A stretch of 64,000 nt of DNA from Escherichia coli (GTDB lineage: Bacteria; Pseudomonadota; Gammaproteobacteria; Enterobacterales; Enterobacteriaceae), in the NCBI RefSeq assembly GCF_013122565.1, contig NZ_CP053258.1; one strand, given 5' to 3'. Made by a program: the position numbers and the translations under genes. Under the pieces are notes generated by a model. It was not told the origin of the DNA, searched no databases, and saw only the letters and a program-made list of their open reading frames with translations. Positions 10,755 to 60,483 of this stretch are shown here, one piece after another; the stretch's first letter is position 1, and every line of letters begins with the position of its first letter.

Positions 10755-10972
10755 AAATAACCTTTAGCATCTTTTATAGAGTCTGGTGTTCAGTCTATTC
10801 CTGTTGCGTAAATCGCGCTATGCAGAATCTTCATCTTTTCAGGTACAAACGCCTTTATTGCTACATTTTTATAACATACACCGCGTAATGCCATCGACCA
10901 GAAAGGTGGCATATGGTGTGATCGGGGTTCAATAAATTGCGAAACAAGGTATACTCCAGCAGTTCCTGAAGA

Positions 10973-10990
10973 TGTTTATTGTACTAAACG
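10973..10990 (+). promoter_or_regulatory. Putative NadR operator in pncB leader
   Basis: TGTTTA-ttgtac-TAAACg matches the NadR box TGTTTA-N6-TAAACA; lies 30 nt upstream of the pncB start codon, just downstream of a TATACT -10-like hexamer (10950..10955). Confidence 0.5.
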
Positions 10991-11019
10991 CTCCTGTACG
11001 AGGACGCTACTGCGCACCT

Positions 11020-12222
11020 ATGACACAATTCGCTTCTCCTGTTCTGCACTCGTTGCTGGATACAGATGCTTATAAGTTGCATATGCAGCAAGCCGTGTTT
11101 CATCACTATTACGATGTGCATGTCGCGGCGGAGTTTCGTTGCCGAGGTGACGATCTGCTGGGTATTTATGCCGATGCTATTCGTGAACAGGTTCAGGCGA
11201 TGCAGCACCTGCGCCTGCAGGATGATGAATATCAGTGGCTTTCTGCCCTGCCTTTCTTTAAGGCCGACTATCTTAACTGGTTACGCGAGTTCCGCTTTAA
11301 CCCGGAACAAGTCACCGTGTCCAACGATAATGGCAAGCTGGATATTCGTTTAAGCGGCCCGTGGCGTGAAGTCATCCTCTGGGAAGTTCCTTTGCTGGCG
11401 GTTATCAGTGAAATGGTACATCGCTATCGCTCACCGCAGGCCGACGTTGCGCAAGCCCTCGACACGCTGGAAAGCAAATTAGTCGACTTCTCGGCGTTAA
11501 CCGCCGGTCTTGATATGTCGCGCTTCCATCTGATGGATTTTGGCACCCGTCGCCGTTTTTCTCGCGAAGTACAAGAAACCATCGTTAAGCGTCTGCAACA
11601 GGAATCCTGGTTCGTGGGCACCAGCAACTACGATCTGGCGCGTCGGCTTTCCCTCACGCCGATGGGAACACAGGCACACGAATGGTTCCAGGCACATCAG
11701 CAAATCAGCCCGGATCTAGCCAACAGCCAGCGAGCTGCACTTGCTGCCTGGCTGGAAGAATATCCCGACCAACTAGGCATTGCATTAACCGACTGCATCA
11801 CTATGGATGCTTTCCTGCGTGATTTCGGTGTCGAGTTCGCCAGTCGGTATCAGGGCCTGCGTCATGACTCTGGCGACCCGGTTGAATGGGGCGAAAAAGC
11901 CATTGCACATTATGAAAAGCTGGGAATTGATCCACAGAGTAAAACGCTGGTTTTCTCTGACAATCTGGATTTACGCAAAGCGGTCGAGCTATACCGCCAC
12001 TTCTCTTCCCGCGTGCAATTAAGTTTTGGTATTGGGACTCGCCTGACCTGCGATATCCCCCAGGTAAAACCCCTGAATATTGTCATTAAGTTGGTAGAGT
12101 GTAACGGTAAACCGGTGGCGAAACTTTCTGACAGCCCTGGCAAAACTATCTGCCACGATAAAGCGTTTGTGCGGGCGCTGCGCAAAGCGTTCGACCTTCC
12201 GCATATTAAAAAAGCCAGTTAA
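11020..12222 (+). CDS. pncB: Nicotinate phosphoribosyltransferase
   Basis: ORF 10972..12222; start at [24 protein letters not shown] (400 aa). Confidence 0.94.
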
Positions 12223-12391: not shown

Positions 12392-13792
12392 ATGAGCGTT
12401 GTGCCTGTAGCCGACGTACTCCAGGGCCGCGTAGCCGTTGACAGCGAAGTCACCGTACGCGGATGGGTACGTACCCGCCGAGATTCAAAAGCTGGCATCT
12501 CCTTCCTCGCCGTTTATGACGGTTCCTGCTTTGATCCTGTACAGGCTGTCATCAATAATTCTCTGCCCAATTACAATGAAGACGTCCTGCGTCTGACCAC
12601 CGGTTGCTCGGTCATTGTGACGGGTAAAGTCGTGGCGTCGCCGGGCCAGGGGCAACAATTTGAAATTCAGGCCAGCAAGGTTGAAGTTGCTGGTTGGGTT
12701 GAAGATCCAGACACTTACCCGATGGCGGCAAAACGCCACAGCATTGAGTATCTGCGTGAAGTCGCTCACCTGCGTCCGCGCACAAACCTGATTGGTGCCG
12801 TCGCGCGCGTTCGTCATACGCTGGCGCAGGCGCTGCATCGCTTCTTTAACGAGCAGGGATTCTTCTGGGTTTCAACGCCACTGATTACTGCGTCTGATAC
12901 CGAAGGTGCTGGCGAAATGTTCCGCGTTTCTACGCTGGATCTGGAAAACCTGCCGCGTAACGATCAGGGCAAAGTGGATTTCGACAAAGACTTCTTTGGT
13001 AAAGAGTCTTTCCTGACCGTATCTGGCCAGTTGAACGGCGAAACCTACGCTTGCGCATTGTCCAAAATTTATACCTTCGGCCCGACTTTCCGTGCTGAAA
13101 ACTCCAACACCAGCCGTCACCTGGCGGAATTCTGGATGCTGGAGCCGGAAGTGGCGTTTGCTAACCTGAACGATATCGCGGGTCTGGCTGAAGCCATGCT
13201 GAAATATGTCTTCAAAGCGGTTCTCGAAGAACGCGCAGACGACATGAAATTCTTCGCTGAACGCGTAGATAAAGATGCCGTTTCACGTCTGGAACGCTTC
13301 ATTGAGGCCGATTTCGCGCAGGTGGATTACACCGACGCAGTGACCATTCTCGAAAACTGCGGCAGGAAGTTTGAAAACCCGGTTTACTGGGGCGTCGATC
13401 TCTCTTCTGAGCATGAGCGTTATCTGGCGGAAGAACACTTTAAAGCACCGGTAGTGGTTAAAAACTATCCGAAAGATATTAAAGCGTTCTATATGCGCCT
13501 CAACGAAGACGGTAAAACCGTTGCGGCTATGGACGTTCTGGCTCCGGGCATCGGTGAGATCATTGGTGGCTCCCAGCGTGAAGAACGTCTGGACGTGCTG
13601 GACGAGCGTATGCTGGAAATGGGCCTGAATAAAGAAGATTACTGGTGGTATCGCGATCTGCGTCGCTACGGTACTGTTCCGCATTCAGGTTTCGGTCTTG
13701 GTTTTGAACGCCTGATTGCTTACGTAACTGGTGTGCAAAACGTGCGTGATGTGATTCCGTTCCCACGTACTCCGCGTAACGCCAGCTTCTAA
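12392..13792 (+). CDS. asnS: Asparagine--tRNA ligase
   Basis: ORF 12347..13792; start at [25 protein letters not shown] (466 aa); class II aaRS. Confidence 0.95.
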
Positions 13793-13805
13793 TTTAGCGT
13801 CTACA

Positions 13806-13832
13806 AGAGCCAGCACCCGCTGGCTCTTTTTT
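13806..13832 (+). terminator. Rho-independent terminator after asnS
   Basis: AGAGCCAGC-accc-GCTGGCTCT hairpin followed by TTTTT. Confidence 0.7.
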
Positions 13833-14182
13833 ATCCTTTCTGTCAAGTTATCTGTTTGTTAAGTCAAGCAATCTATTTGCAACCCCGCCATAACGATCAT
13901 CCTGTTACGGAATATTACATTGCAACATTTACGCACAAAAAATAACCCGCATTCTTATTGCGGATTAGTTTTTTCTTAGCTGATAGCACAATTTTCATAC
14001 TATTTTTTGGCATTCTGGATGTCTGAAAGAAGATTTTGTGCCAGGTCGATAAAGTTTCCATCAGAAACAAAATTTCCGTTTAGTTAATTTAAATATAAGG
14101 AAATCATATAAATAGATAAAAATTGCTGTAAATATCATCACGCTTCTATGGAAATATGACGGTGTTCACAAAGTTCCTTAAT

Positions 14183-14245
14183 TTTTACTTTTGGTTACAT
14201 ATTTTTTCTTTTTGAAACCAAATCTTTATATTTGTAGCACTTTCA
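14183..14245 (+). promoter_or_regulatory. ompF promoter-proximal OmpR binding region (F1-F2-F3 tandem sites)
   Basis: TTTACTTTTGGTTACATATTT / TTTCTTTTTGAAACCAAATCT / TTATATTTGTAGCACTTTCAC: three tandem ~20-bp GTTACA/GAAAC-containing repeats located about -100 to -40 from the expected ompF start site (~110-nt leader). Confidence 0.55.
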
Positions 14246-14392
14246 CGGTAGCGAAACGTTAGTTTGAATGGAAAGATGCCTGCAGACACATAAAGACACC
14301 AAACTCTCATCAATAGTTCCGTAAATTTTTATTGACAGAACTTATTGACGGCAGTGGCAGGTGTCATAAAAAAACCATGAGGGTAATAAATA

Positions 14393-15481
14393 ATGATGAA
14401 GCGCAATATTCTGGCAGTGATCGTCCCTGCTCTGTTAGTAGCAGGTACTGCAAACGCTGCAGAAATCTATAACAAAGATGGCAACAAAGTAGATCTGTAC
14501 GGTAAAGCTGTCGGTCTGCATTATTTCTCCAAGGGTAACGGTGAAAACAGTTACGGTGGCAATGGCGACATGACCTATGCCCGTCTTGGTTTTAAAGGGG
14601 AAACTCAAATCAATTCCGATCTGACCGGTTATGGTCAGTGGGAATATAACTTCCAGGGTAACAACTCTGAAGGCGCTGACGCTCAAACTGGTAACAAAAC
14701 GCGTCTGGCATTCGCGGGTCTTAAATACGCTGACGTTGGTTCTTTCGATTACGGTCGTAACTACGGTGTGGTTTATGATGCACTGGGTTACACCGATATG
14801 CTGCCTGAGTTTGGCGGTGACACGGCATACAGCGATGACTTCTTCGTTGGTCGTGTTGGCGGCGTTGCTACCTATCGTAACTCCAACTTCTTTGGTCTGG
14901 TTGATGGCCTGAACTTCGCTGTTCAGTACCTGGGTAAAAACGAGCGTGACACTGCACGCCGCTCTAACGGCGACGGTGTTGGCGGTTCTATCAGCTACGA
15001 ATACGAAGGCTTTGGTATCGTTGGTGCTTATGGTGCAGCTGACCGTACCAACCTGCAAGAAGCTCAACCTCTTGGCAACGGTAAAAAAGCTGAACAGTGG
15101 GCTACTGGTCTGAAGTACGACGCGAACAACATCTACCTGGCAGCGAACTACGGTGAAACCCGTAACGCTACGCCGATCACTAATAAATTTACAAACACCA
15201 GCGGCTTCGCCAACAAAACGCAAGACGTTCTGTTAGTTGCGCAATACCAGTTCGATTTCGGTCTGCGTCCGTCCATCGCTTACACCAAATCTAAAGCGAA
15301 AGACGTAGAAGGTATCGGTGATGTTGATCTGGTGAACTACTTTGAAGTGGGCGCAACCTACTACTTCAACAAAAACATGTCCACCTATGTTGACTACATC
15401 ATCAACCAGATCGATTCTGACAACAAACTGGGCGTAGGTTCAGACGACACCGTTGCTGTGGGTATCGTTTACCAGTTCTAA
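14393..15481 (+). CDS. ompF: Outer membrane porin F
   Basis: 362-aa [25 protein letters not shown]…VGIVYQF; C-terminal Phe beta-barrel signature. Confidence 0.98.
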
Positions 15482-60245: not shown

Positions 60246-60415
60246 AATGGCTCACTCAAGCTTGCTCACGATTGATTCCAGTAACAAACCGTATTGTGTA
60301 ATTATTTCTATAGCAGTTCGCTATATAGGCTTGTATACATCGAATGATTTGAAAATCAAAGAGATAGGTAGATTTTCACTCGAAAGTAGTATTACGTGTA
60401 AGTGAGGAGTAATTA

Positions 60416-60429
60416 TTGTTCGGTATCAA
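60416..60429 (-). promoter_or_regulatory. FNR box of the dmsABC promoter
   Basis: On dmsA strand reads TTGAT-accg-AACAA (TTGAT-N4-ATCAA family), about 175 nt upstream of dmsA ATG. Confidence 0.5.
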
Positions 60430-60430
60430 A

Positions 60431-60462
60431 GGGAGACAAAAAAAGCGCCCGCAGGCGCTTTT
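60431..60462 (-). terminator. Rho-independent terminator after serS
   Basis: AAAGCGCC-cgca-GGCGCTTT hairpin; on serS strand followed by UUUUUUGUCUCC. Confidence 0.65.
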
Positions 60463-60483
60463 TAGATTCAGAAAAATTGGGTA

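Follow-up and report, generated by a model that had tools for sequence, protein, structure and literature searches.

Background

The ompF control region is the classic model of one response regulator that both activates and represses a gene, and the ompF leader is the target of the earliest-described trans-acting antisense RNA. How readily nutrients, bile salts, and many antibiotics enter the cell depends on the level of OmpF, and natural alleles of the region can therefore shift permeability. Among the OmpR sites of the gene, F4 is the distal, low-affinity site that serves repression at high osmolarity.

Four OmpR boxes of ompF are listed in Additional file 3 of PMC3050692, in which Yoshida et al. 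2006 is cited as the source. The 260-bp spacing between F4 and F1 is described in the same paper, and a loop model is presented both there and in PMC3050693. Outside of E. coli, F4 is absent in Yersinia (PMC3050692, PMC3050693). In Y. pestis, the sequence ACTTTGTGACTTAGATCGAATTT at -131..-109 of ompF has been footprinted with DNase I and cAMP-CRP, and CRP activates the gene directly, whereas the effect of CRP on ompF in E. coli is described as indirect, via ompR (PMC3050693). At the RNA level, RybB lowers the amount of ompF mRNA in Salmonella (PMC1804206) and has been cited as regulating ompF in E. coli (PMC5491885). Finally, PMC1489923 describes a leader motif in two parts: a long stem-loop that begins 5-10 nt downstream of the 5' end, and a small hairpin at the ribosome-binding site.

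Here, this system is analysed in a window of 64,000 nucleotides of E. coli DNA (contig NZ_CP053258.1), by which is meant the whole stretch of sequence under study. The ompF control region and leader that it contains are already known, and nothing in them is new in kind. The regulatory functions discussed below are transferred by analogy from K-12, Salmonella, and Yersinia on the basis of exact sequence identity and conservation.

The asnS-ompF Gap and Its Genomic Context

The genes that frame the region, assigned from the list of open reading frames (ORFs) and the gene order of the K-12 annotation, are given below, together with a terminator that was returned by a terminator scan and an inverted-repeat search.

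10972-12222, plus strand: pncB
ending at 13792, plus strand: asnS
13805..13834, plus strand: predicted intrinsic terminator of asnS, with a 10-bp stem (AAGAGCCAGC/GCTGGCTCTT), a 4-nt loop, and a T-run
14393-15481, plus strand: ompF porin ORF, 362 aa
3' of ompF, plus strand: aspC

The gap between the end of asnS at 13792 and the start of the porin ORF at 14393 spans 13793-14392 and is exactly 600 bp long. The original prediction had described a 600-bp, AT-rich gap that is large for the genome, and each part of this description is borne out by the exact coordinates, by a GC content of 0.30-0.38 (vs. ~0.50 in the flanking genes), and by its rank as the largest of the window's 46 inter-ORF gaps (ORFs of ≥100 aa; median gap, 92.5 bp).

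The K-12 annotation shows the identical order, pncB-asnS-ompF-aspC, which is the synteny by which the ompF control region is recognised. The encoded porin is 100% identical to K-12 OmpF over 362 aa, with nine synonymous base differences between the two genes. A match to the gap is present in 5,424 of the 5,426 complete E. coli genomes, with identities of up to 99.0%, and the surrounding 24 kb is collinear with E. coli (identity up to 98.6%). A scan with AsnS returned loci across the Enterobacterales; 25 loci were compared, in all of which a porin gene follows asnS, and 13 Enterobacteriaceae sequences were aligned. The gap is almost certainly the orthologue of the well-studied E. coli ompF regulatory region.

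The stem of the asnS terminator is kept in 12 Enterobacteriaceae with both of its arms changed (GAGCCAGC/GCTGGCTC vs. GGCCAGC/GCTGGCC), and a predicted terminator belonging to asnS itself is evident from the sequence. The genes for the regulators all lie elsewhere: ompR/envZ, micF, and rybB are located outside the window, with micF far from the ompF locus and beside ompC. In a search of the whole window with Rfam, STnc130 was the only match, and none was obtained for micF. Permissive Rfam matches within the gap (STnc240, Thr and Trp leaders, and a KRAS 3' UTR) were below threshold and driven by terminators, and were rejected as chance. Likewise, the small ORFs at 13915-14070 (minus strand), 14185-14313 (minus strand), and 14332-14472 (plus strand), which run across conserved DNA sites or, in a different frame, across the ompF start, were taken as non-coding.

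Four OmpR Boxes

The reference sequences for boxes F1-F4 were taken from PMC3050692 Additional file 3. Each finds its counterpart in the gap, with positions numbered from the start site at 14284 that is derived in the following section.

13904..13923, plus strand: F4, GTTACGGAATATTACATTGC, at -380..-361; exact match to the published box
14184..14203, plus strand: F1, TTTACTTTTGGTTACATATT, at -100..-81; exact match to the published box
14204..14223, plus strand: F2, TTTTCTTTTTGAAACCAAAT, at -80..-61; exact match to the published box
14224..14243, plus strand: F3, CTTTATATTTGTAGCACTTT, at -60..-41; one mismatch, A for C at 14230

The published form of F3 is CTTTATCTTTGTAGCACTTT (PMC3050692 Additional file 3). 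Each of the four boxes is unique in the window: elsewhere, no sequence comes closer to any of them than five to six mismatches. The distance from the end of F4 to the start of F1 is 260 bp. A total of four predicted OmpR boxes, with F4 at -380..-361 and a contiguous F1-F2-F3 array at -100..-41, can be read from the sequence itself. The claims that had been made for this array hold up well, with some trimming. Three tandem OmpR-type repeats of ~20 bp had been proposed at 14183..14245; these are indeed F1-F3, although the proposed range extends beyond them by one base on the left and by two bases on the right, and the self-similarity of the repeats is weak. Their proposed location at -100 to -40 agrees with the span of -100..-41 relative to the inferred start, alignment to the published F1-F3 gave two exact matches and one with a single mismatch, and the room that had been foreseen for a distal F4 site is in fact occupied by an exact copy of it, 260 bp 5' of F1.

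To avoid circularity, the ompF sites were left out of an independent scoring matrix, for which 17 OmpR boxes from other genes served as input. Among the ~128,000 positions of the window, this matrix ranked F1 1st, F4 13th, F3 50th, and F2 297th. When the scores of three boxes in a 20-bp register were summed, F1-F3 reached 22.6 and ranked first among 127,882 positions, with the next best at 5.6; in 500 shuffles of the gap, the score never exceeded 8.6.

It could be argued that F1-F3 are nothing but chance similarity in AT-rich DNA to which no protein binds. The pairwise identity among the three boxes is only 11-13 of 20 positions, a self-similarity repeat search of the window did not report them as repeats, and F2 scores poorly when taken alone (rank 297 with the independent matrix). 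Against this stand the exact or near-exact matches to published, footprint-derived boxes, the first rank of the triple among 127,882 positions with 0 of 500 shuffles equal to it, and the half-sites GTTACA and TTTGTAGCAC, which are conserved across 13 genera. By the box matches and the triple score, the chance reading is already refuted, and its probability is negligible. F1-F3 are recognisable only against known OmpR boxes, and the term “repeats” refers to a repeated binding-site architecture.

Conservation adds further detail to F1-F3 and F4 as OmpR boxes. The alignment of 13 Enterobacteriaceae shows conservation of GTTACA and TTTGTAGCAC, the key half-sites of F1-F3; TTTGTAGCAC, which belongs to F3, is invariant, and the TGTTAC core of F4 is conserved in most members of the family. 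A scan with the CpxR consensus returned one match with one mismatch, which overlaps F1.

The Promoter and the Leader

The ompF start site of K-12 has been placed at 987092 (promoter table, PMC12360894 supplement), 110 nt upstream of the ATG (986982). Because the window sequence matches K-12 at every position from -53 to +82, with one A fewer in an A-run of the leader, the start transfers to A14284 and the leader becomes 109 nt long. A leader of ~110 nt beginning at 14283 had been proposed; its length was right to within one nucleotide, and its start is moved by one base to 14284. The features of the promoter and leader are as follows.

14249..14277, plus strand: predicted weak core promoter, with -35 hexamer TAGCGA (14249-14254), a 17-bp spacer, and -10 hexamer AAAGAT (14272-14277); identical to K-12
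14284..14392, plus strand: ompF 5' leader, 109 nt, with the start at A14284 transferred from K-12
14295..14365, plus strand: long, imperfect stem-loop predicted within the leader (-23.9 kcal/mol for the minimum-energy fold)
14350..14358, plus strand: putative RybB seed target GGCAGTGGC, pairing with nt 1-9 of K-12 RybB at -18.4 kcal/mol
14376..14403, plus strand: putative MicF target, covering GAGGG (14379-14383) and ATGATG (14393-14398), pairing with nt 1-34 of K-12 MicF at -27.4 kcal/mol

From their spacing to the start site, the hexamers TAGCGA and AAAGAT are inferred to be the -35 and -10 elements, and the promoter motifs GGTAGCGAA and GGAAAGATGCCT are conserved across the Enterobacteriaceae. 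A scan of the sigma-70 consensus did not call the ompF promoter because its hexamers are weak, as would be expected for a promoter that depends on an activator such as OmpR.

The sequence of the leader is nearly invariant among the 25 Enterobacterales compared. Its fold, which also shows a small hairpin at the ribosome-binding site, fits the leader motif of PMC1489923 outlined above. Across the 25 species, 89.6% of the cells in the long stem-loop pair, vs. 35-48% with slid partners, and six pairs have changed on both sides. These values come from counting pairs on the single-sequence fold, which replaced an RNAalifold analysis of the 25 leaders; the latter gave a poor consensus (-3.5 kcal/mol) on account of indels and one outlier.

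The leader contains sequences complementary to the 5' ends of two small RNAs, namely MicF, at the ribosome-binding site and AUG, and RybB, and both are predicted targets on this basis. The complementarity to MicF has a local score of 35, the best in the window (the next, unrelated site scores 26), and the target block is invariant in all 25 species. Duplexes computed with full-length MicF were long and ridden with loops, with the true site at -27.4 kcal/mol vs. other tiles at -27.3, and were replaced by the duplex of the 5' end and the local complementarity score. The leader had been proposed as the target of an antisense sRNA, to be examined by folding with micF, and the pairing of the MicF 5' end with 14376-14403 supports this as a putative target. 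The A that is missing from the leader lies just 5' of the MicF duplex. For RybB, GCAGTGGC at 14351-14358 is the exact complement of nt 1-8, only 0.7% of shuffled seeds formed a duplex as good, and the target sequence GGCAGTGGCAGGTGTC is nearly invariant across the Enterobacterales.

A CRP-Type Site Upstream of the Boxes

A further conserved element is found on the 5' side of F1.

14155..14170, no strand assigned: CRP-type site TATGA-CGGTGT-TCACA, centred at -121.5; TATGACGGTGTTCACA matches 9 of the 10 core bases of TGTGA-N6-TCACA

In 22 of 25 Enterobacterales loci, representing several families, the sequence TCACAAAG(T/C)T(C/T)C occurs equally far from the ATG, and the site in the window is orthologous to the one footprinted in Y. 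pestis. In a catalogue of K-12 CRP promoters, the ompF CRP site is placed at -92.5, essentially in F1, and not at -121.5. The site at -121.5 is a reasonable candidate for a direct CRP input to ompF, one that may be under-documented. As a more modest alternative to the small-transcript reading of the distal half taken up below, this order-wide conserved site could be the real, direct cAMP-CRP input to ompF in E. coli, in place of the -92.5 site or a purely indirect route.

The Distal Half of the Gap

Two features stand out in the DNA between F4 and the CRP-type site.

13943..13967, both strands: terminator-like hairpin from the terminator scan, at -341..-317, preceded by an A-run and followed by a T-run
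14086..14116, no strand assigned: most conserved distal block, AATTTAAATATAAGGAAATCATATAAATAGA, at ~-198..-168; candidate for an IHF or DNA-bending site within the loop between F4 and F1

Many columns of 14086-14116 are invariant across 13 Enterobacteriaceae, and TTCACAAAGTTCC is likewise invariant in these 13. When compared by eye with the IHF consensus WATCAANNNNTTR, the segment AAATCATATAAATAG at ~-184..-170 shows two mismatches; a consensus scan that allowed one mismatch did not return this site. The block at ~-180 is reportedly where an IHF footprint lies (Ramani et al. 1992). The consensus scan found one match with one mismatch, at -68..-56, and the number of matches did not exceed that in shuffled sequences. 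The original prediction had also left room for distal IHF sites, for which the match to the consensus is thus weak and at the level of chance. Further conserved distal blocks in the 13 Enterobacteriaceae are AATAGCAC and GGCAnTCnGGA, and large parts of the distal half, including 14031-14075, are not conserved.

The length of the gap differs among families. Of the 12 fetched Enterobacteriaceae loci, 11 have a gap of 591-618 bp (544 bp in Mangrovibacter and 786 bp in Superficieibacter); it spans only 245-321 bp in Erwiniaceae, Pectobacteriaceae, Yersiniaceae, and others, where the asnS terminator is followed almost directly by the proximal elements. On these comparisons, the 600-bp gap is specific to the Enterobacteriaceae, and the gaps of ~300 bp in other families leave no room for F4. 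The published absence of F4 in Yersinia (PMC3050692, PMC3050693) agrees with the short gap there. By the same comparison, the gap became twice as long in the Enterobacteriaceae, and this lengthening coincides with F4.

It could be suggested that the distal ~300 bp (13835-14150), apart from F4, is a functionless spacer, an insertion in the ancestral Enterobacteriaceae that merely sets the length of the loop. This would account for the gap of 245-321 bp in the other families of the order, which runs from the asnS terminator straight to the CRP-type site, as well as for the lack of conservation over large distal parts such as 14031-14075 and the lack of enrichment in matches to the IHF consensus. 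It does not sit well with the conservation across 13 genera of 14086-14116, AATAGCAC, and GGCAnTCnGGA, nor with the narrow range of 591-618 bp in 11 of 12 fetched loci, a constancy that suggests constrained geometry. On balance, this explanation seems unlikely. Less likely still, and in our view quite improbable, is that the distal half encodes an unannotated short transcript whose 3' end is marked by the hairpin at 13943-13967, inside the F4-F1 repression loop; this would be either a divergent minus-strand RNA from ~14096 or a plus-strand asnS read-through or 3'-UTR RNA. In its favour, the terminator scan found three sites in the region where 0.6 were expected, the hairpin has a T-run on both strands, and on the minus strand it is kept stable by G-U wobbles within Escherichia (-13.7 kcal/mol here, -11.0 in E. 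albertii, and -19.7 in K-12). A promoter-like sequence on that strand, TTTACA-18-TATGAT at 14132-14103, lies ~160 nt upstream of the hairpin, and ompC-micF offers a precedent for a divergent small RNA beside a porin promoter. Promoter-like matches, however, are below chance in this AT-rich stretch (one vs. 2.9 expected), no Rfam family reaches threshold, K-12 RefSeq has no annotation there, and a literature search on the asnS-ompF region yielded mainly strain- and source-typing papers, along with one porin-evolution paper.

The restriction of the hairpin to Escherichia also speaks against a short transcript. The hairpin energy in the window is -9.3 kcal/mol on the plus strand, in comparison to -20.2 (plus) and -19.7 (minus) in K-12, with z of ~-7 on both strands. 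In E. albertii it survives on the minus strand only, and among the species compared outside Escherichia, no significant structure was found. The stem in K-12 is strengthened by two substitutions that are derived, which argues against an ancient structured RNA. The promoter-like site at 14132-14103 was itself rejected, with matches fewer than chance and a -35 that is not conserved outside Escherichia. The hairpin may be an Escherichia-specific terminator, serving as a back-up for asnS or as the end of a divergent transcript, or an element acting at the DNA level. If a transcript did end there, transcription into the loop would interact with OmpR/F4 repression of ompF, in an arrangement that recalls micF beside ompC.

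Comparison with K-12 and Allelic State

Taken as the ompF control region, the gap aligns over its full length with the 602-bp gap of K-12, with 12 substitutions and two one-base indels (14 differences). The flanking genes and their orientation are alike, and F1, F2, F4, and the MicF and RybB targets are identical. The differences include an A in F3 at 14230 (-54), where K-12 has C; a T at -102, just before F1, where K-12 has A; a leader of 109 nt vs. 110 nt, with one A fewer; and two substitutions that weaken the hairpin at -341..-317 in the window.

At most of the 14 differences, the window shares the state of E. albertii and/or Citrobacter, and K-12 is the derived form at several positions. 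An A at 14230, for example, is also found in E. albertii, Citrobacter, and others. Only ~3-5 of 5,262 complete E. coli genomes contain the exact 61-mer around F3; almost all E. coli therefore carry the derived C, and the genome examined here keeps the ancestral A. The A/C difference in F3 and the missing A of the leader could alter the quantitative behaviour of the gene.

Proposed Regulation

By analogy with the systems outlined above, a small amount of phosphorylated OmpR (OmpR-P) at low osmolarity would fill F1-F2, and perhaps F3, cooperatively and recruit RNA polymerase. At high osmolarity, OmpR-P would additionally occupy the weak, distal F4, and the 260 bp of DNA between F4 and F1 would be looped, probably with the aid of a bending protein at the conserved block at ~-180, shutting off transcription. 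MicF would act on the message by blocking the initiation of ompF translation, and RybB, under sigma-E envelope stress, would promote decay of the mRNA. The conserved CRP-type site at -121.5 probably adds a direct cAMP-CRP input, as in Y. pestis.

The rare ancestral allele of F3, the derived state of K-12, the doubling of the gap together with F4, and the order-wide CRP-type site may perhaps be useful to specialists, and none of them is surprising. The RybB target, the conserved CRP-type site, and a second hairpin go beyond the list of features in the original prediction.

Relationship to Other Porin Promoters

The ompF promoter of Y. pestis shares with the present locus the tandem F1-F2-F3 arrangement, and both its OmpR and its CRP sites have been footprinted. 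The CRP-type site lies immediately upstream in both, at ~-120 there and -121.5 here, with TCACAAAGT in common, and the MicF and RybB target sequences are the same in both leaders. Unlike the window, the Y. pestis promoter has no F4, and its leader is without the ~13-nt apical insertion of the Enterobacteriaceae.

In the ompC-micF region, which offers a second parallel, a weak porin promoter and a long leader targeted by a small RNA are preceded by three contiguous 20-bp OmpR boxes (C1-C2-C3), each composed of a pair of 10-bp half-sites. The OmpR sites of ompC are shared with a divergent small-RNA gene, and there is no distal repressing box. For ompF in the window, by contrast, no divergent gene is established, and it is the distal F4 that would turn the activator into a repressor.

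Architecture of the asnS-ompF Intergenic Region

The length of the gap between asnS and the downstream porin gene differs by family. When the window's gap (13793-14392) was compared with the asnS-porin loci of other Enterobacterales (L003-L025, L036, and L072), Enterobacteriaceae were found to possess a gap of approximately 600 bp (range 544-786), and in the same comparison that of Erwiniaceae, Pectobacteriaceae, Yersiniaceae, and others spanned approximately 300 bp (245-321). The distal OmpR box F4 sits in the additional distal half of the longer Enterobacteriaceae gap. Elements recognized in the gap and leader, together with the small RNA located elsewhere in the window, are as follows:

13842-13879: two 17-nt direct repeats, GTCAAGTTATCTGTTTG and GTCAAGCAATCTATTTG, 21 bp apart, directly 3' of the asnS terminator
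13943-13967: terminator-like hairpin, the second in the gap, within the F4-F1 interval, with an A-run 5' and a T-run 3'
13981-13996 and 14010-14030: distal-half blocks AATAGCACAATTTT and GGCAnTCnGGAnGnCTAAA, both conserved within the family
14155-14177: CRP-type site TATGA-N6-TCACA, including the invariant TCACAAAGTTCC, centred at -121.5
14326-14338: apical insertion of ~13 nt in the leader's long stem-loop, TTTTTATTGACA
60336-60470 (+): STnc130, an enterobacterial small RNA (Rfam, 138.8 bits)

The 17-nt repeats are shared with K-12 and E. albertii and are absent in other genera. The hairpin is very stable in its K-12 version and weaker in the window, and no significant structure was found at this position in comparison species beyond Escherichia. 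The leader insertion occurs in most Enterobacteriaceae leaders and is missing both from the non-Enterobacteriaceae families and from Enterobacter sp. Ag1.

Allelic State and Genomic Setting

At 14230, 13935, 13942, 13946, and 14143-14144, the window carries the state seen in E. albertii and Citrobacter, and K-12 differs. Of 5,262 complete E. coli genomes, only about 3-5 have the A at 14230 that defines this F3 allele, so the derived C is what nearly all E. coli have in F3. The surrounding 5000-29000 segment (mukF, mukB, ldtD, pepN, asnS, and others) is collinear with E. coli, but none of the 5,426 complete E. coli genomes exceeds 98.6% identity to it; Shigella, or an E. coli lineage missing from that set, is the probable source. 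Across the entire window, STnc130 was the sole Rfam family above threshold, and no tRNA genes were found.

Separately, in E. coli strain MEW (NZ_CM192120.1, 3636691-3638003), an IS200C-family insertion splits the asnS-ompF gap, naturally disrupting the region upstream of ompF.

Comparison with Known CRP Sites

The CRP-type site, together with its TCACAAAGTTCC element, is retained in 22 of the 25 Enterobacterales loci. The footprinted CRP site of Yersinia pestis ompF is the orthologue of this site at -121.5, whereas a K-12 catalogue places the ompF CRP site at -92.5.
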